This document shows positions 1 to 36,884 of a stretch of DNA of 36,884 bases, piece by piece. Positions within the stretch are counted from its first letter, which is position 1. Each line of letters begins with the position of its first letter. Where the stretch lies: the IMG/VR virus record IMGVR_UViG_3300034411_000408, positions 1-36,884 of that record. One strand, given 5' to 3'. This stretch comes from a virus. Lineage: Duplodnaviria; Caudoviricetes. The position numbers and the translations under genes were made by a program. The notes below the pieces were generated by a model. That model was not told where the DNA came from. It saw only the letters and a list, made by a program, of their open reading frames with translations, and made no database searches.

Positions 1-105
1 GAAAGTGCCCAGCGGCGCGAGGTTGTCATCACTGAAGACGAGCCGATTGTCTGGGGGCTGGACGTTAGCCGCTTTGGCTCCGACCGCAGCGCGTTGTGTA
101 AGCGC
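1..105. repeat. Terminal direct repeat (circular overlap) with 36780-36884, 98/105 identical
   Basis: Direct comparison of both window ends. Confidence 0.95.
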
Positions 106-634: not shown

Positions 635-673
635 TGGTAAAATTAATCCCCATAAAATCACCATATATGGGGG
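635..673 (+). promoter_or_regulatory. Putative late promoter 1: extended -10 plus NrdR-box-like palindrome
   Basis: TGGTAAAAT (635-643), 17 bp, CCATATATGG (661-670). Confidence 0.7.
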
Positions 674-804: not shown

Positions 805-3246
805 TTGCCGAGCGCTTCAAACCTTGCTGGAGGCCTCCTTGGCCTGGGCGACAAATCTGCTCGCCTAGCTAGAGCTCGCGAGCAAGGCTTTGACGTAGAC
901 AACGTCTACTATCACGGCACCGACGCGGACATCGAATCGTTTGAAGTTCCCGCTACGGGGCTTTTTGTGTCTGGTTCACCTGACGTCGCCTCTTCTTACG
1001 TTGGCAATATGCGTGAGTTTGGCAATCCGAGCGCTCCTGTCGTTTATCCCGTCTTCATCAAAAAAGAAGGCTTTGCGCGCGTTACCCCATCGACGCCAGG
1101 GCAATTGTATGGTGATTTGCAATTAGACGGGATGACTATCGATGGCCAGGACGCGCGCAGTTTTCTGCAGTTAGGTGCCGACCGAGACATTACGTCCACC
1201 GACGAACTTACGAGTCTTCTCTCCGAAGATTACCCAGGCGTTATCATAGAGGGCATTGTTGATGTCGGCCCGAATGTTAAGTCGGGCACGCTGAGAAACC
1301 GCATGGATTATCTGGCGGAACAGGGCTATCCAGCGAACCCTTGGTATGCACCAAAGATGACGCAGCGAGAAAGACTGCGGTCAATGCTAGATAAGTCGGT
1401 ATACGCAAACGTGCCCGACGACCTAAGAAAACAGTCCAGAGAGGCAGCTGCTGCCAAATTGTTCGCACCCACTGATGTCGTTGTGGCGTTTGATGACACC
1501 GCAATTCGCTCAATCAACGCTAAGTTTGATCCCAAGAAATCGATTTCAGAGGACATACTGGCAAGCGCTCCGCTTGCACTAGCAACTGCGATTGGTGCGG
1601 CGGCGGTAGCGTCGCCACAAGACGCTGAAGCGAACGTGCTCACCGCCAGCCTGTCGCCCGTTCTGCGTGCCTCGATGGACGCCATGTTGCGCGGCGAAGA
1701 TTTGCCAAAGCGCGACATGAACAGGGTGAACAAGTACCTGCAGCAGATAGCAGACGATCAGACGGCTTTTGGCCGACGAGAACGCATGCGAATGCAGCCT
1801 GGCGCGTCGCAAGATGTCGATGTCCTGCAGCGCGACATCATCCTGCCAGAAGACCTCCAAGGCAGCGCTATGGTGCCCATACAGGGCGATCCAAGCATCG
1901 CTGGCTCAAGTCTATTGGACGTCGAAGGCGTCCCGCTAAGTGCTCCTGTGACGCTGCAGGGCGGCCCTAACTACGGTTTGATGAATTCCGATCTGAATAG
2001 TTTGTTGGGCTGGGCGTCAAGCAAAGGCGCTGCGCAAAAACTACAGAATCAAATTAATCGTGCTGCTGGCCTGAGCGATGACGTGCGCGGTGTCTTTGCC
2101 CGCATGGGCGACGAGTCAATGAAGTTCAATACGATGCTAGTCGAAAGCATGGTGCGTCAGATACCGGCGCTCGGGATCGCGAAGAAAGAGATCAATCGCT
2201 TTAACGCTGACATCAGAAAAAGCGTGCCGGATTTCGCTGGCGTTGAGACTGAAGAAGGCCTGGCACAGATGAAAGGTCTGGCACCGGCAAGTAAAAAAGG
2301 CGGAAAACGTGTTGCGCCTTCTGACCTGCGAAAGTTGGTCGTAAACAAAATGGACATGAAAAACGACTACGGCAGGGTCGGTTTTCCAAGCTACGAAGAC
2401 ACACTGCGCGCGATCACTGAACCGGAGTTGCGTGGACTACCGCGTGGTGAGTCTGGGTTCAGCACCATAAAAGCCTTCCCAGGTGCTGCTCTGCTAGACG
2501 ACGCCATGCACGACACCTACTCGCATGGCGTGAAAGGCATCTACGCTGGTGGCCTGCAAGAAAGCATACCGTTGCAGGTGATGTTTCCAGACCTGTACAG
2601 GGCAACCGACGACCTGCGAGTGACGTCAAAAGGCAGCAAGCGTTTGGGTCAGCCGCTTAACGAAACAGAGCGCACAGGCGCTGTGCTCTTGGGCGGTGGT
2701 GCGCAGAAAGCCGATCAGCAGTGGCTTGACGGCGTCATGAAATATCTTGAAGACAAAAAGAAGATGGGCCGTGCTGCAGCAATCGCGGCCGCTTTGTCTT
2801 CTGGCAATGCGATGGCGATACCGCCCGAAGACATAGACATACAAAACGAGATCGATGCCCGCCGTGCCGGCGGCAGAAAGTATCGCCGCGACAACCCGCC
2901 AAGCGGACTGCTTGCGGCAGAAGCGCAAAGCCAAGCCTTACCGCGCGCTGCAGAAGCAGGCCAGGGCTTCGTATCTGGTTTGTTGAGCGGCATAGACACC
3001 TTTGTGCAAGGCATGGCCGCACCAGATCCACGCGCCGCGATCGCGTCTCCGCAAGGCTACGGCCAGCAAATGGATAGGTTTATCCAAAACCAACAATTAC
3101 CGCCGGCGCAGAACCCAAACTCCATGATGAGCACGCCTGCAATGCGCGGCCTGCTAGACCAGCAATACATGGAAGACCCAGCCGAGCGCGCTGCTTTTCG
3201 CGCGCCGTTTGAGGCATTTGGCGGCCTACTGGCACCAGGAATATAA
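805..3246 (+). CDS. Large multidomain (polyvalent-type) protein with N-terminal ADP-ribosyltransferase-like (ART-PolyVal-like) domain
   Basis: YYHGT...F...GLFVS..PDVASSY...VVYPVFI and VVAFDDTAIRSINAKFDP motifs; Ala-rich linkers separate a second unknown domain. Confidence 0.6.
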   Translation: MPSASNLAGGLLGLGDKSARLARAREQGFDVDNVYYHGTDADIESFEVPATGLFVSGSPDVASSYVGNMREFGNPSAPVVYPVFIKKEGFARVTPSTPGQLYGDLQLDGMTIDGQDARSFLQLGADRDITSTDELTSLLSEDYPGVIIEGIVDVGPNVKSGTLRNRMDYLAEQGYPANPWYAPKMTQRERLRSMLDKSVYANVPDDLRKQSREAAAAKLFAPTDVVVAFDDTAIRSINAKFDPKKSISEDILASAPLALATAIGAAAVASPQDAEANVLTASLSPVLRASMDAMLRGEDLPKRDMNRVNKYLQQIADDQTAFGRRERMRMQPGASQDVDVLQRDIILPEDLQGSAMVPIQGDPSIAGSSLLDVEGVPLSAPVTLQGGPNYGLMNSDLNSLLGWASSKGAAQKLQNQINRAAGLSDDVRGVFARMGDESMKFNTMLVESMVRQIPALGIAKKEINRFNADIRKSVPDFAGVETEEGLAQMKGLAPASKKGGKRVAPSDLRKLVVNKMDMKNDYGRVGFPSYEDTLRAITEPELRGLPRGESGFSTIKAFPGAALLDDAMHDTYSHGVKGIYAGGLQESIPLQVMFPDLYRATDDLRVTSKGSKRLGQPLNETERTGAVLLGGGAQKADQQWLDGVMKYLEDKKKMGRAAAIAAALSSGNAMAIPPEDIDIQNEIDARRAGGRKYRRDNPPSGLLAAEAQSQALPRAAEAGQGFVSGLLSGIDTFVQGMAAPDPRAAIASPQGYGQQMDRFIQNQQLPPAQNPNSMMSTPAMRGLLDQQYMEDPAERAAFRAPFEAFGGLLAPGI

Positions 3247-5333: not shown

Positions 5334-5547
5334 TTCGCTTTTAAACATTCAACGCTTGGCGGACGACGAAGACTTCGCCGAGCTCATCAAGATGCTAAGG
5401 CTCGATTACTTCGAGTTGTGGTGCAAGGAACGTGACCCCGCGATGCGGGAGCGCTTACATCAAAAACAGGAAGCTCTCGACGATATTGTTGTGCGGATGC
5501 GCGCAGCAGCCGACGAGATTGCTTTCGCAAAACAGCGGAATAACTAA
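5317..5547 (+). CDS. Small hypothetical protein between portal and scaffold
   Basis: Overlaps portal stop; its stop overlaps the scaffold ATG. Confidence 0.75.
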   Translation: MALSPNSLLNIQRLADDEDFAELIKMLRLDYFELWCKERDPAMRERLHQKQEALDDIVVRMRAAADEIAFAKQRNN

Positions 5548-6569
5548 TGAGTGATAAAATAAGTAATGAACAAACCCCATATATGGGGGGCACCTTGGGC
5601 GACGCTCAGGCTGCCATCGCTAAATTGATGGAACCCGCAGCAGGGCAAGCCGAAGATTCAAGCGACGTTGACGAGTCCCTGGATGACGGGGGCGAGGCAT
5701 TAGAAGGCGCTGAGTTTGAAGAATCCGAAGAGGAATTCGACTCAGAAGACGACGATGCCGACGACTTGGATGACGACTACGACGAGGACGAGGGCGAACC
5801 AGAGCAAGCCGATACCTTCACTGTAAAAATAAACGGTGAAAACGTAGAGGTTAGTTTGGATGAGCTTCAGAACGGTTACTCGCGCCAAGCCGACTACACG
5901 AAGAAGAGCCAGACTTTGGCGGAAGAGCGTAAGGCTTTCCAACAAGACCGAGACGCGGTTCTTCTTGAGCGGACACAGTATTCCCAGCTATTGGGAGCTT
6001 TGCAGCAGCAGCTAACGGCTTTTGACGAGCCAGCCCCGGACTTCGATCGTATGTATGAGGAAGATCCGATTGAGGCAAGTCGCCTTGAGCGACAGTACCG
6101 ACAGCGGAGCGAGCAGCGAGCGCAAAAAATGCAAGCCATTGCTATCGAGCAGCAGCGTGTGAATGACGCCAACGCTCAAGAGCAAACGGAGCAAATGCGC
6201 GGGCTAATTACTCAGGAAGCAGCCCGACTGCCTGACGTCATTCCAGAATGGAAAGACGAGAAGGTAGCGAGCCGCGAACGCGAAGAGCTAAAGAGCTACT
6301 TGCTCGATAGCGGCGTTGCGGAAGAGGAGCTTGGCGCACTTGTGCGCGCTAGCCATATCGCAGTATTGCGAAAGGCGATGCTCTTCGACAAAGGCCAGAG
6401 CAGGGTGCGTAAAGCACGCAAGGCTGGCCAACAGGGCAAGACAGTCAGGTCAGGATCTCGTCAACAGCAGGTGAAGCCAAGCGCTCGCAAAACTAAAGCC
6501 GCGTATCAACGTCTCAAAGAGCGAGGCACTGCAGAAAATGCAGCCTCATTGATTGAATCTCTTTTATGA
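5547..6569 (+). CDS. Capsid scaffolding protein
   Basis: Acidic N-terminus, FTVKINGENVEVSLDELQNGYSRQADYTKKSQ motif, coiled coil, directly upstream of the capsid gene. Confidence 0.9.
   Translation: MSDKISNEQTPYMGGTLGDAQAAIAKLMEPAAGQAEDSSDVDESLDDGGEALEGAEFEESEEEFDSEDDDADDLDDDYDEDEGEPEQADTFTVKINGENVEVSLDELQNGYSRQADYTKKSQTLAEERKAFQQDRDAVLLERTQYSQLLGALQQQLTAFDEPAPDFDRMYEEDPIEASRLERQYRQRSEQRAQKMQAIAIEQQRVNDANAQEQTEQMRGLITQEAARLPDVIPEWKDEKVASREREELKSYLLDSGVAEEELGALVRASHIAVLRKAMLFDKGQSRVRKARKAGQQGKTVRSGSRQQQVKPSARKTKAAYQRLKERGTAENAASLIESLL
5552..5589 (+). promoter_or_regulatory. Putative late promoter 2 (inside scaffold 5' end): extended -10 plus palindrome
   Basis: TGATAAAAT (5552-5560), 16 bp, CCATATATGG (5577-5586). 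Confidence 0.65.
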
Positions 6570-22937: not shown

Positions 22938-23160
22938 TGGCACCACTTTGGCACCACTTTTACGGTTAAATACAGCATTTCACAGTAAGCCACAGCAGGG
23001 CGCCTTTGTAAGTCATTGATTTTATTGGGTCTGCAGCAAGCTACAGCAGGCTGCAGCAGGCGACTATGGGTTCAAGCCCCATCGTCCACCCCATTCAACC
23101 TATTGATTTGATTGACTTTTTTGTTGTCAGATTAATGTTGGCACCAGTTTGGCACCACTA
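22938..23160. mobile_element. attP: tRNA-His 3'-end core with arm-type, IHF and Xis-like sites
   Basis: Core ATGGG-TTCAAGC-CCCAT-CGTCCAC-C-CCA (23066-23093); TGGCACCA(C/G)T(T/A) pairs at 22938/22949 and 23139/23150; WATCAANNNNTTR on - strand at 23009-23021 and 23096-23108. Confidence 0.9.
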
Positions 23161-28190: not shown

Positions 28191-28258
28191 TGTCTCCTTA
28201 TTCGTTGACAAGGGGAACAATATAGATGACCTATATGGCTGTCAACAAAAAGGAGACA
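28191..28258 (-). promoter_or_regulatory. Early leftward sigma70 promoter with repressor-operator-like sites
   Basis: TTGACA (28245-28240), 17 bp, TATTGT (28222-28217); TGTCAACA-AAA-AGGAGACA at 28240-28258. Confidence 0.75.
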
Positions 28259-29558: not shown

Positions 29559-29676
29559 TGTCTCCTAATTTATAATGTCACCCGAATGTATCGCAAAGGG
29601 TGACAATGAGCAACACTTTCGGTGACAAATTGATTGTGTGTTGTGACTGTCACCCAAAGGGTGTACATTCGCAGCG
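29559..29676. promoter_or_regulatory. cI/cro switch: operators TGTCACCC-N3-GGGTGACA and rightward promoter
   Basis: Sites at 29587-29605, 29609-29627, 29648-29666, half-site 29576-29583; TTGTGA (29641-46), 17 bp, TACATT (29664-69). Confidence 0.8.
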
Positions 29677-32363: not shown

Positions 32364-32633
32364 ATGAAGTGTAAGCAGTGCGGTAGTAGCGGTCATAGGG
32401 TAATCAGCTCTGACAAGCTGCGAGAGGGCGTTAGACGGCGTCGCGAGTGTTTGCGATGTGGAAACAGGTGGAACACAATTGAGACGGTGCTGGTCGAGCG
32501 ACCGGCAGAGCCGAAGGCGAAGCCGGAGCGCAAGCCTGTGGAGCCCGCGTATCGGCGTGAAGAGCTCGAAGACTTGGCCGATGGTTGGGACAGCGAGCTC
32601 GACGACATACTTAACGAATTAGGAGCGAACTAG
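32364..32633 (+). CDS. NrdR-type zinc-ribbon protein lacking the ATP-cone, with acidic tail
   Basis: MKCKQC...RVISS....GVRRRRECLRCGNRWNTIE matches the NrdR N-terminal CxxC...RRRRxCxxCxxRxxTxE pattern. Confidence 0.85.
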   Translation: MKCKQCGSSGHRVISSDKLREGVRRRRECLRCGNRWNTIETVLVERPAEPKAKPERKPVEPAYRREELEDLADGWDSELDDILNELGAN

Positions 32634-32634
32634 G

Positions 32635-33075
32635 ATGCCTGGCAGACCGATAATCAGAGCGCAGATCAAGAGCCTGGAAGAACGTGGCGAGGAAGCCGTG
32701 TTCAATATGATTGCCGGTGGCATGACTGTCGTGAACACGATGAAAGAATGCCAGGTTGGCCGGCGTGCGTTCTACCGATGGCTGGAAGAGGGCGAGGGTA
32801 GGCACGATCGCTACCTGCAAGCTCGGAGGTTGTGGGCTGACGCACTGGCTGAAGAGTGCCTAGAGATCGCCGATGGCACGATGGACGCGCACGACGCGAC
32901 CGTTCGTAAACTGCGCATCGATACGCGCAAGTGGTTGGCCGGTAACGTGAACCCAGATCAATGGCGTGAGAAGCGCGATCCGTTAGTGAACATCACGCTG
33001 GGTGATCAGCATTTGGCGGCGCTTCGTGAGCTTACAAACGACAGCGTAATCGAGCATGAGAGCGACGAAACCTAG
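32635..33075 (+). CDS. terS: Terminase small subunit (Sf6 gp1-like)
   Basis: HTH then YLQAR...ADALAEECLEIAD...KLRIDTRKWLA...P..W. Confidence 0.88.
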   Translation: MPGRPIIRAQIKSLEERGEEAVFNMIAGGMTVVNTMKECQVGRRAFYRWLEEGEGRHDRYLQARRLWADALAEECLEIADGTMDAHDATVRKLRIDTRKWLAGNVNPDQWREKRDPLVNITLGDQHLAALRELTNDSVIEHESDET

Positions 33076-33154: not shown

Positions 33155-33335
33155 GCCGTGGAACACCGCAGATAATTACGCGAAAAACTGTTAGATCAAC
33201 GAAATCAATGACTTACGGCTGCGCGCAATTGCGCGTAATAATCATTATGTTAAATTGGGCCTCAAAAGGGCCGTGGAACACGCCGTGGAACAATGGCTGC
33301 CCCCCCCCTTGAACCAGCAGGGGGGGGGGGGGGGG
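33155..33335. other. Putative packaging (pac/cos-like) region
   Basis: GCCGTGGAACA x3 (33155, 33270, 33282), IHF consensus 33203-33215, palindrome 33222-33235, C9 and G16 tracts; directly after terS. Confidence 0.5.
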
Positions 33336-33546
33336 AGGGAGAGACTTCCGCGCACCGAAAAAAATTCTCTTTTCTTCGCGTGCCCTTCTTCGCAGTCTTT
33401 GCCGCAGCCCTAAAAGCCTTCTTTGTCGGCCTTCCTTTTTCATTGGCTTTTCGCATGCGTTCTGGCGTCTTACCAGCCGCTTTCTGCGCCTTGATCCGCC
33501 GCCGCTTGGCAGCGATATTGGCGTACAGCCCTCTTCGTGGCATCAC
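33262..33546 (-). CDS. Small highly basic protein
   Basis: MPRRGLYANIAAKRRRIK...RMRK...PTKKAFRAAAKTAKK; GGAGG RBS; true C-terminus uncertain because it crosses the homopolymers. Confidence 0.75.
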   Translation of the reverse strand: MMPRRGLYANIAAKRRRIKAQKAAGKTPERMRKANEKGRPTKKAFRAAAKTAKKGTRRKENFFRCAEVSPSPPPPPAGSRGGAAIVPRRVPRPF

Positions 33547-33797
33547 TTCCTCCTAGATTTCGTGCCCGCGCACTTCCAGCGCTTACGGCTGAGTCGGAGC
33601 GGGCTGTTTGGGTTCTTGGCGGCTTTCGGGTGCTTCTTCATCTGGCCGGCGCTCCGCGCGCAGTAGGCGTCGCCTTTCTTGCTCGCCGGCTGCACGCGCC
33701 GCGATCCATCTTTGGCCTTGCCCGCCTGGCCATACGAAATACGTTTGCCGCTGGCCGTCACTTTGACGCGGGCTTTGCCCTTGCGTGGCGTAGCCAC
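33543..33797 (-). CDS. Small basic protein (DUF6321-like)
   Basis: SYGQAG...YCARSAGQMKKHPKAAKNPNSPLRLSRKRWKC. Confidence 0.8.
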   Translation of the reverse strand: MATPRKGKARVKVTASGKRISYGQAGKAKDGSRRVQPASKKGDAYCARSAGQMKKHPKAAKNPNSPLRLSRKRWKCAGTKSRRK

Positions 33798-33799
33798 GG

Positions 33800-33931
33800 C
33801 TAGCGTGGTGGGTAGGCTGGCTTAACGACAGGTACGTTCGTGCCGGCAGCCATGCGGGCGTTGCGAGCTTGTTTGGTGGCCGTGCGCTTGCCTTTCATGG
33901 CTTTCATTGTTTTTGAGTGTGATCCGTACAT
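33800..33931 (-). CDS. Small basic peptide (43 aa)
   Basis: Not in the track; GGAG RBS then MYGSHSKTMKAMKGKRTATKQARNARMAAGTNVPVVKPAYPPR*; stops 2 bp before the next start. Confidence 0.7.
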   Translation of the reverse strand: MYGSHSKTMKAMKGKRTATKQARNARMAAGTNVPVVKPAYPPR

Positions 33932-33935
33932 AGGA

Positions 33936-33973
33936 GCTCCATATGTGGTGATTGATGAGCTCCAATTTTCTCA
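33936..33973 (-). promoter_or_regulatory. Putative late promoter 3 (leftward): extended -10-like plus palindrome
   Basis: - strand TGAGAAAAT (33973-33965), 16 bp, CCACATATGG (33948-33939); AATCACCAYATATGG shared 14/15 with 656-670. Confidence 0.65.
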
Positions 33974-33990
33974 TATTTATTTCTATTTAT

Positions 33991-34031
33991 TGTCTCCTAA
34001 AAGGTGACAAGTAGAACAATATCGGTATAAT
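33991..34031 (+). promoter_or_regulatory. Early sigma70 promoter overlapped by a CI-type operator
   Basis: TGTCTCCT-AAA-AGGTGACA (33991-34009); GTGACA, 16 bp, TATAAT (34026-34031); AT-rich upstream tract. Confidence 0.75.
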
Positions 34032-34756: not shown

Positions 34757-34945
34757 ATGACGACAACGCAATTACCAGCCCCCTGGCACGGCAAGCATCC
34801 GCTGGATCTCGACACATCTACGCTGGCGCTGCTTTTAGAGGCCATCGCCGCCGACGCAGAGCGCGCGCCAGACCGCACAATATCTTCTGTTGGCTTAGCC
34901 GATATATTGCTCGCCGCGTCGGATCGGCTGTTGGAGGCACCGTGA
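34757..34945 (+). CDS. Hypothetical protein
   Basis: G-rich RBS within a 27-bp repeat. Confidence 0.6.
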   Translation: MTTTQLPAPWHGKHPLDLDTSTLALLLEAIAADAERAPDRTISSVGLADILLAASDRLLEAP

Positions 34946-35522: not shown

Positions 35523-35882
35523 ATGATTAGTAAAAAGTTTGGCGATTTATTGGTTGAAGTAGAGCTCGAAGACGGCGAGTTGTGGCGCAGGGGCACGATT
35601 AGCATTTACTTCGAGCTTGGCGCTGCATATGAGAGTTACCACGTCAGCCCGCCTGACATTAAGAAATTTCGGTATGACGATCCGTCGCCCAGGTTCATCG
35701 ACCTGGTGCGCGTCACTTCCTGGATCAGAGACTATGTAGATGGGAACCCAACCGACGAAATAGATCAAATGGTCAGGGATTTGATCGAACAAGAAATCAC
35801 CTTCAGCACTGACGGCCAAGTCATTGACGACCCGTTTCATAATCCAACTGACGAGCTCAACCCGCGCCACATATACGAATAG
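35523..35882 (+). CDS. Hypothetical acidic protein
   Basis: AGGA/GAAGG upstream; 119 aa. Confidence 0.7.
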   Translation: MISKKFGDLLVEVELEDGELWRRGTISIYFELGAAYESYHVSPPDIKKFRYDDPSPRFIDLVRVTSWIRDYVDGNPTDEIDQMVRDLIEQEITFSTDGQVIDDPFHNPTDELNPRHIYE

Positions 35883-35993
35883 CCTGTCCCTGACCTGTCC
35901 CTGATCAATCCCTGACCAATCCCTGACCTGCTCAGAGCGTCCCATTTCTGCTCGGAACGCTGCTCATTTCTGCTCAGACCATTGCTCAGACCA
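35883..35993. repeat. Degenerate ~11-bp tandem repeat array upstream of terL
   Basis: CCTGTCCCTGA x2, TCAATCCCTGA, CCAATCCCTGA, then TGCTC(A/G)-containing units. Confidence 0.8.
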
Positions 35994-35997
35994 TAAG

Positions 35998-36036
35998 CGG
36001 TAGAATATGGCATGCCTGAAAACCCATATGTGGCGT
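35998..36036 (+). promoter_or_regulatory. Putative late promoter 4 (terL): -10 plus palindrome
   Basis: CGGTAGAAT (35998-36006), 17 bp, CCATATGTGG (36024-36033). Confidence 0.65.
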
Positions 36037-36884
36037 TTGTTAAGCGCTTTCGCACCGATCCCGTCGCTTTTGTTGAGCAAGTGCTCAAACAAACGCCCGA
36101 CGCCTGGCAAGTTGAATTCTTGACCGCCATAGCCTCTGGCGAGCGGAAAATCAGCGTGCGCTCTGGCCACGGCACCGGCAAATCGACGGCGAGCTCGTGG
36201 GCGATGCTTTGGTATTTGCTGACGCGCTATCCGGTCAAAATCGTCGTGACAGCGCCGACTAGCGCGCAGCTGTTCGACGCGCTGTTTGCGGAGCTCAAGC
36301 GCTGGATCAACGAGTGCCCTGTGGCGATCAAAGAGCTTTTGGAAGTGAAGAGCGACCGCGTCAGCCTAAAGGCCGCGCCCAGCGAAGCGTTTATTTCATG
36401 CCGGACATCGAGAGCAGAAACGCCAGAAGCGCTGCAGGGCGTTCACTCCGACAACGTGATGTTGGTGTGCGACGAGGCGTCCGGTATCCCCGAGGCGGTA
36501 TTTGAGGCGGCAGCTGGCTCGATGTCTGGCGAGCACGCAACGACCATTTTGCTCGGCAACCCAACCAGGAGCTCTGGCTTCTTCTTCGACACCCACCACC
36601 GCATGGCGGGCGATTGGTGGACGCGCAAGGTCAGCTGCATCGACTCGCCCAGGGTGAGTGAAGATTATGTGAGCGAGATGGCTGCGCGTTTTGGCGAAGA
36701 GAGCAACGCCTTTCGCGTGCGAGTCCTAGGGGAATTTCCCCAACGCGATGATGATACGGCTATACCTCTCGAATTAGTGGAGAGTGCCCAGCGGCGCGAG
36801 GTTGTCATCACTGAAGACGAGCCGATCGTGTGGGGCTTGGACGTCAGCCGATTTGGCTCCGACCGCAGCGCGTTGTGTAAGCGC
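36012..36884 (+). CDS. terL: Terminase large subunit, N-terminal ATPase part (continues across the circular junction into 106-633; ~466 aa total)
   Basis: Not in the ORF track (no stop in window). ATG at 36012 reads MPENPYVAFVKRFRTDPVAFVEQVL...ISVRSGHGTGKST (Walker A)...VMLVCDEASG (Walker B)...LLGNPT; codon 36780 corresponds to codon 1 of the window. Confidence 0.95.
   Translation, partial: MPENPYVAFVKRFRTDPVAFVEQVLKQTPDAWQVEFLTAIASGERKISVRSGHGTGKSTASSWAMLWYLLTRYPVKIVVTAPTSAQLFDALFAELKRWINECPVAIKELLEVKSDRVSLKAAPSEAFISCRTSRAETPEALQGVHSDNVMLVCDEASGIPEAVFEAAAGSMSGEHATTILLGNPTRSSGFFFDTHHRMAGDWWTRKVSCIDSPRVSEDYVSEMAARFGEESNAFRVRVLGEFPQRDDDTAIPLELVESAQRREVVITEDEPIVWGLDVSRFGSDRSALCKR
36780..36884. 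repeat. Terminal direct repeat, second copy
   Basis: Matches 1-105 except for 7 synonymous substitutions. Confidence 0.95.

Follow-up and report, generated by a model that had tools for sequence, protein, structure and literature searches.

The window, i.e. the whole 36,884-nt stretch of DNA analysed, represents a complete temperate phage of marine origin (CheckV 100%). Profile searches identified an integrase, a cI/cro-like pair, a primase-helicase, the small and large terminase subunits (terS, terL), a SU10-type portal, a scaffold and a capsid gene. An earlier note on this DNA had stated that no ribonucleotide reductase (RNR) is encoded, and the RNR large chain (PF02867) indeed had no match in the complete genome. 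Two scans of window proteins (22 and 20 proteins) showed neither a sliding clamp nor a phage sigma factor. The ends of the window (1-105 and 36780-36884) overlap by ~105 nt with a few differences, as expected if the assembly is circularly permuted and cut within terL. Between terL and the portal lies an 813-aa gene (805-3246) with a weak ART-PolyVal match (E 0.006), and this slot varies among close relatives.

A segment beside the integrase (23067-23095) was identical (29/29 nt) to the tRNA-His found at a metagenomic integrase junction, L438, and is the probable attP core, matching the 3' part of a gammaproteobacterial tRNA-His. Integrase-tRNA junctions were also visible in both L437 and L438. 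In a sample of 401 genomes belonging to the order of G041, 26 nt of this segment occurred in 20, and one of these 20 (G142) carried the longer tRNA fragment of L438; the NrdR of G142 was 80% identical to an NrdR labelled OM182. The tRNA-His matches (L438, G142) and this OM182-like NrdR point to a marine gammaproteobacterium as the probable host, for which G142 serves only as a stand-in.

The gene under study (32364..32633, + strand) is the last before terS in a run comprising cro, primase and nuclease genes, and terS (32635..33075, +) follows directly. It encodes 89 aa, consisting of a zinc ribbon (residues 1-40), a Pro/Lys linker and an acidic C-terminal helix (65-85). The earlier note had read it as an NrdR-type ribbon whose ATP-cone is replaced by this linker and tail, and had proposed profile and structure comparisons with NrdR. 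The translation (CxxC..RRRRECxxC, Pro/Lys-rich linker, acidic tail) agrees with that reading. The protein scored 47.8 bits against PF22811, the NrdR-like N-terminal zinc ribbon (cut-off 27.2, residues 1-40), failed the NrdR equivalog model TIGR00244 (33.2 bits vs a cut-off of 124.65, residues 1-57 only), and the ATP-cone (PF03477) had no match anywhere in the phage genome. In its predicted fold (mean pLDDT 90, pTM 0.49) three strands were accompanied by a helix at 65-85. The best Foldseek matches were all NrdR (S. coelicolor 7P3F, E. coli 9FXK; E above 0.001), with an rmsd of 0.8-1.4 over 43-46 columns. By profile, sequence and predicted fold, the 89-aa protein is an NrdR zinc ribbon; with no ATP-cone, neither nucleotide sensing nor tetramer formation is expected of it. 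Ogr/Delta (PF04606) had no match in the protein at E up to 0.1, and the Atlas returned for that family just one low-ranked mixed cluster (0.86).

A tblastn search of annotated phages with the ribbon protein gave no match, and a word-index homologue search returned close relatives only. The ribbon profile matched 338 clusters (50% identity) at E up to 0.001, some full-length NrdR included, and the nearest Atlas cluster (789 members) was 98% viral.

In published work on NrdR, the ribbon dimer is built by residues R27, R29 and E42 (PMC12176259). Base reading and specificity depend on D15 and R17, and a single NrdR box is read by one ribbon pair, with NrdR kinking the DNA and repressing (PMC9110341). 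D15A binds more strongly and less selectively, and R17A does not bind (PMC9110341). The phage protein keeps the RRRR run, the R37-equivalent and the equivalents of the dimer-interface residues. Across all 16 proteins of clade A, to which the window belongs, the four cysteines, R25, R26, R27, R35, T38 and E40 were invariant, as were D76, I82, L86 and G87 in the tail. The base-reading residues are replaced in the window protein (S15, D17). R17 was found in 0/16 clade-A proteins, where position 17 is D/E/T/Q/K/A, and position 15 is D (11), S (4) or N (1) though the box does not vary. K/R18 is kept in 16/16 and may or may not substitute for the lost arginine. Loss of R17 is the main result against direct binding by the clade-A protein.

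The same note had reported the palindrome CCAYATRTGG at four positions. Scanning the whole window confirmed all four exact copies (661, 5577, 33939 and 36024) and found no further site at one mismatch; 100 shuffles gave a mean of 0.02 copies and none with four, for a pattern chosen after inspection of the data. Ahead of each box, at a distance of 16-17 nt, stands a -10-like hexamer that lacks a -35, so that the box would fall at about +10 to +20 of the predicted transcription starts. Just past the terL stop, TAAAAT preceded by TGG (638..643, +) is followed after 17 nt by the box at 661..670 (+), which overlaps the likely ribosome-binding site (RBS) of a 41-aa ORF (679-804) upstream of the portal region. 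The second hexamer, TAAAAT preceded by TGA (5555..5560, +), falls among the opening codons of the scaffold gene (5547-6569); 16 nt further on, its box (5577..5586, +) is likewise in scaffold coding sequence, with the major capsid gene downstream. On the - strand, GAAAAT preceded by TGA and without a -12 T (33965..33970) stands 16 nt before the box at 33939..33948 (-). This box overlaps the likely RBS of a 43-aa basic ORF (33800-33931), with further basic ORFs downstream (33543-33797 and 33262-33546). The fourth hexamer, TAGAAT (36001..36006, +), ends 5 nt before the terL ATG at 36012, and the box (36024..36033, +), 17 nt after it, falls in the terL codons N-P-Y-V-A. The description of the boxes as starting four morphogenesis units needs correction: 5577 and 36024 are inside scaffold and terL coding sequence, and 33939 precedes small basic ORFs of no assigned function rather than an evident morphogenesis unit.

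At 36001-36014, as at the scaffold starts of L585, L587 and L588, the ATG follows the -10 after 5-6 nt and a clear RBS is missing, suggesting that late mRNAs at these places may be leaderless. The scaffold promoter (5547-5590) lies within the scaffold's own first codons; a transcript would therefore begin past the ATG as annotated, and either a truncated scaffold protein or expression of the capsid gene may be its purpose. Short tandem repeats of the CCCTGA and TGCTCAGACC types occupy 35880-35990, just upstream of the terL promoter. Two more box-like 10-mers, 22 nt apart (34878-34887 and 34900-34909), lie in a 62-aa accessory ORF. The latter recurs in L003, L135 and L303; the 34878 site, third on the host-box matrix described below, has no -10 at the right distance and was set aside. 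TGTCACC/GGTGACA dyads occur in the cI-cro interval (29576-29654), in the left operon (28191-28258) and at 33991-34009, where a DNA methyltransferase gene is preceded by a near-consensus sigma70 promoter (34004-34031) whose -35 the dyad covers. These dyads are probably CI/Cro operators, and their different motif led us to reject the box as a CI operator.

The composite of hexamer and box was conserved throughout clade A. The spacer measured 16-17 nt in 52 of 63 distinct contexts and 14-17 nt in all 63, the core consensus was [CG][CAT]A[TCG]AT[AG]T[GAT]G, and the commonest flanks were AACC and GGTT. None of 55 contexts exceeded 3/6 matches to the -35 consensus TTGACA, and no conserved element between -35 and -10 was seen by eye. 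An extended TGn -10, which can function without an activator, was present in 41/55. The loose core pattern was found at all terL starts (39/39), terL ends (45/45) and scaffold starts (56/56), and in 30/31 basic-ORF regions, where the 1.2-kb windows include chance matches; these counts are of redundant loci, with reverse-oriented loci skipped and L224 absent from the list. The basic-region site of L304 lies ~24 nt from its hexamer. Terminator-like sites were at chance level in the regions scanned (7 vs 8.1 and 14 vs 10.7).

Codon usage at the box points to constraint acting on the DNA and not on the protein. The terL box codons AAC, CCA and TAT were invariant in 14/14 relatives, compared to 4/68 four-fold and 6/52 two-fold codons elsewhere, and in the scaffold the residue at the box varies (Y/H/D) with the box letters constant. 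A pure coding constraint was rejected, since synonymous codons are frozen and lineage D (see below) encodes the same N-P-Y with other codons. An RNA stem was disfavoured: the degenerate core positions were complementary at pairs 2/9 and 4/7 in 9/18 and 7/18 distinct cores, without co-variation. A scan of viral contigs with the composite pattern returned mostly chance matches (~10/119 loci matched this phage's genes), and the boxes did not emerge from a per-genome test for enriched gapped palindromes. Loci within each lineage are near-copies, and the comparison rests on about four independent lineages.

The boxes closely resemble the NrdR targets of the candidate hosts. NrdR was encoded in 20/20 candidate host genomes, with D15/R17 invariant in the 18 aligned; paired boxes upstream of nrdA were taken from eight candidate host genomes. 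A matrix built from 16 nrdA boxes of these eight genomes only, leaving out nine other pattern matches whose location before nrdA was not established, ranked the four phage sites 1, 2, 4 and 5 of ~36,900 windows (10.5-15.4 bits vs 8.8-24.3 for the training sites). The phage boxes fit the NrdR target core CnAnATnTnG. In G142 the downstream nrdA box, CCATATCTTG, has AACC/GGTT flanks and lies 22 nt after a predicted -10. The proposal that C/G at the two W positions of the NrdR box sets the phage core apart had to be dropped, because host nrdA boxes carry C/G there too. The phage boxes are single, with no partner box at three helical turns.

Comparison with related lineages bore on the earlier suggestion that the palindrome should occur only where the ribbon does. 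Lineage D (terL 79%, portal 70% identity) grouped with clade A, as sister or nested, with support of 100 in quick trees from which L525 was left out as too short. Both features were absent: the ribbon was found in 0/5 records (one complete) and the box at 0/4 equivalent promoters, the -10-like hexamers being kept. At 4/4 of these promoters a GCA[TC][CA]AA element lies 12 nt upstream of the -10 (genome G443, L506:7327, 8801 and 13609 on the + strand and L506:5745 on the -), and four of its six matches genome-wide are at these promoters. This is lineage D's own late-promoter element. The slot between nuclease and terS holds a 64-aa gene without a ribbon. With a 13-column matrix applied to 65,078 C-terminal windows, its tail came immediately after those of clade A, and an HMM of the acidic tail missed it (9 bits), so homology of the tail is supported by one of two tests. 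The N-terminal half of the protein does not resemble a folded DNA-binding domain. A parS-like palindrome lies inside this gene (L506:4266-4281) and may explain the conserved FHVE/FHME residues of its product.

Lineage E (GC 58-67%, terL 65-67% identity) encodes a ribbon with an acidic tail before terS, and here the hairpin reads K15/Y17/Q18. Its palindrome, GGCACGGGTGCC, is unlike the clade-A box and stands at similar spacing. The composite xAxAAT + 17-18 nt + GGCACGGGT occurred at the portal and scaffold starts of 4/4 genomes, twice per genome (0.00 expected), and was absent from 5/5 genomes of A, D and F. NrdR-type cores were not in excess in lineage E (0, 2, 2 and 4 vs 10, 3, 4 and 5 in reversed controls), and the palindrome scored -14 and -20 on the host-box matrix. 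A3 and T8 of the core are retained, but the outer pair read by NrdR D15/R17 is inverted, from which we infer that Lys favours G where Asp favours C. The dyad centre lies 1-3 bp farther out, the -10-like elements have no -12 T, and the scaffold copy overlaps Gly-Thr codons also present in ribbon-less relatives. A motif-first scan of viral contigs recovered 76 composite matches, 56 of them before the portal, and a K15 ribbon was present in 21/21 matches with at least 1.5 kb upstream of terL, all of one lineage. Loose E-type matches in L208, L444, L539 and L541 were set aside as GGCAC[AC]GGT variants away from portal and scaffold starts.

Lineage F (GC ~30%) has a ribbon that keeps E15-S-R17. In 3/3 genomes a -10, 14-16 nt and a one-mismatch box precede the portal operon, as the sole match in each half-genome scanned; the core lies 24-28 nt after the terL stop in 9/9 loci (by eye), and boxes showed no genome-wide excess. 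In this lineage terL is apart from terS and the portal. The terL stop is followed, in genome G451 (L576:15221-15330) and its lineage F relatives, by a box and then a long hairpin that face convergent genes; the hairpin is possibly a small RNA or a terminator. The tails of lineages E and F are acidic and were not among the A-tail matches (as judged by eye). An altered hairpin thus accompanies another palindrome in lineage E, and NrdR-like residues accompany NrdR-like boxes in lineage F. Ribbon type is linked to dyad type in three lineages with similar geometry, and a fourth is without both.

The ribbon was found in 0/16 near-complete records of more distant relatives, and 21 loci of distant ribbon-less relatives showed no clear box excess. 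The composite was absent at their terL, with 13 matches in 1.01 Mb; three of these came from AT-rich phages resembling lineage F, with an incomplete record and no ribbon match. A prophage search of species genomes by terL alignment yielded 56 loci (best 69% identity), none with the ribbon. Ribbon-less freshwater relatives have another cysteine-rich gene between primase and nuclease (L249:7210-7554, L271:3344-3829), a candidate regulator. Among 27 representative loci of unrelated cone-less ribbons, a terminase gene was among the tested neighbours in six and the ribbon stood just upstream of another annotated transcription regulator in four; at 33 such loci, box excess was slight at most. As unrelated cone-less ribbons lack the pattern, the claim is limited to this phage family.

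Since the palindrome changes or vanishes along with the DNA-reading part of the protein, the phage dimer itself probably binds the box. That this cone-less dimer also activates the late promoters from single boxes, by means of its acidic helix, we put at even chances. In the proposed mechanism, the ribbon protein would be expressed only after CI release, and would dimerise through the conserved third strand and R25/R27/E40 (NrdR R27/R29/E42). The dimer would bind the single palindrome 16-17 nt downstream of the -10 at the four late promoter-like sites, independently of dATP/ATP. The tethered residues 65-85 would then contact RNA polymerase and activate at recruitment, opening or escape, which is the least certain step. 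In favour of activation are the lack of a -35 and, at the basic-ORF site and in lineage E, of a -12 T, the fixed spacing, the location of the gene in a cro-initiated run and the acidic helix, which is conserved and held on a 20-residue tether; moreover, being downstream of cro, the gene would be off in the lysogen, when a repressor would be needed. Against it, the +10 to +20 site would lie in the open-complex footprint. The original reading of a nucleotide-independent late regulator acting on the boxes has therefore gained comparative support from lineages D, E and F, and what tells against it is the loss of R17 in clade A. More tentatively, and with the odds against it, the cone-less ribbon could also displace host NrdR at nrdA boxes, raising dNTP supply besides starting the virion genes. 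That fuller version, doubtful as a whole, describes a single-box activator at +10 to +20 in temperate aquatic phages with reprogrammed specificity: C..G dyads with D/E/S15 and G..C dyads with K15, host nrdA boxes still being recognised in the marine lineages.

All of the box and ribbon co-variation would apply equally if the dimer repressed extended -10 late promoters until replication multiplied the sites and diluted the protein, acting as a timer. The +10 to +20 interval is a classic operator position, NrdR is itself a repressor, and TGn occurs in 41 of the 55 contexts. We nevertheless regard repression as unlikely: another silencer would be needed for these promoters in the lysogen, repression would not require four sites, each embedded separately, to share a 14-17 nt spacer, and it would leave unexplained why the acidic helix is conserved, even in lineage D. 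The earlier note's alternative assigned silencing to host NrdR, which would hold the late genes off in the lysogen until the phage ribbon paired with host ribbons and freed both the late genes and RNR; in a variant, a mixed phage/host dimer would read the box. This accords with the match to host nrdA boxes, AACC..GGTT flanks included, with the NrdR (D15/R17 invariant) of the candidate hosts, and with a phage protein that has lost R17 but keeps its dimer-interface residues. The phage also has no RNR, and a pneumococcal phage is reported to upregulate the NrdR regulon during infection (PMC6755750). NrdR, however, needs two boxes for high affinity (PMC12051234), and a second box was found at 30-34 bp in 0/81 contexts and at 41-44 bp in 8/81. 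The lineage E palindrome is not an NrdR box, yet accompanies a ribbon in similar geometry, and the fixed -10 spacing and the tail go unexplained. The single boxes and the lineage E scores weaken this alternative, which now appears quite improbable.

A comparably low probability attaches to the composite being a genuine late-promoter element that is recognised by some other phage or host factor, or acts as RNA, with the ribbon gene an accessory linked by shared ancestry only. The independent lineages are few, many cone-less ribbons occur without boxes and some lie upstream of another regulator (4/27), and two boxes, which overlap ribosome-binding sites, can fold into short hairpins. Yet the sites match, on the host matrix, the known target of a domain that the phage encodes, the CI-type operators have a different motif, and the degenerate positions lack the co-variation expected of a stem.

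From sequence comparison, the late-promoter system is real and conserved, and apparently undescribed. The earlier note knew of no such phage circuit, and we likewise found no phage NrdR late circuit described in the literature searched (mainly open-access articles); in PMC8790148 and PMC5894146, NrdR is used as a gene label in phage annotation, and PMC4840434 lists a Cp-1 protein interacting with NrdR. One branch of the common cone-less NrdR ribbons hereby gains a concrete proposed role and target. A late promoter with a -10 only and a dyad at +10 to +20 is outside textbook phage late control, and a bacterial activator working inside the open-complex footprint would, if true, be mechanistically surprising. 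Lineages A and E form a natural specificity contrast for base recognition by an NrdR ribbon. Resemblance of the phage sites to host nrdA boxes raises the prospect of cross-talk with host nucleotide synthesis.

In comparison to NrdR, the phage protein shares the zinc-ribbon fold, the RRRR run, the R37- and E42-equivalents and a target dyad matching host nrdA boxes. Unlike NrdR, it has no ATP-cone, has lost R17 in clade A and has an added acidic helix, and its box is single, at late promoters and at a fixed distance after the -10. Activation from downstream DNA is known for DnaA at lambda pR, and T4 gp33/gp45 act at -10-only late promoters; these are precedents for downstream stimulation and for -10-only late promoters, involving different proteins. 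The DnaA precedent was not found in the available part of PMC3985674. Like P2 Ogr and P4 Delta, the ribbon protein is a small four-cysteine phage protein proposed to control separate late promoters via a dyad. Those zinc-finger late activators act from a dyad upstream of the -35, whereas the present protein has no PF04606 match and its dyad is downstream of the -10; the analogy with Ogr drawn previously thus fits in role and not in geometry, the box being at about +10 to +20. In the Q and AlpA antiterminators, the binding element lies between -35 and -10. The lineage D upstream element lies about where those of lambda Q, Pseudomonas AlpA and T4 MotA lie. Unlike in these systems, the element of our phage is downstream of the start, serves four promoters and not one, and comes with no excess of terminator-like sites. 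The ribbon gene, finally, shares its genomic position with lambda Q, both closing the early right operon.
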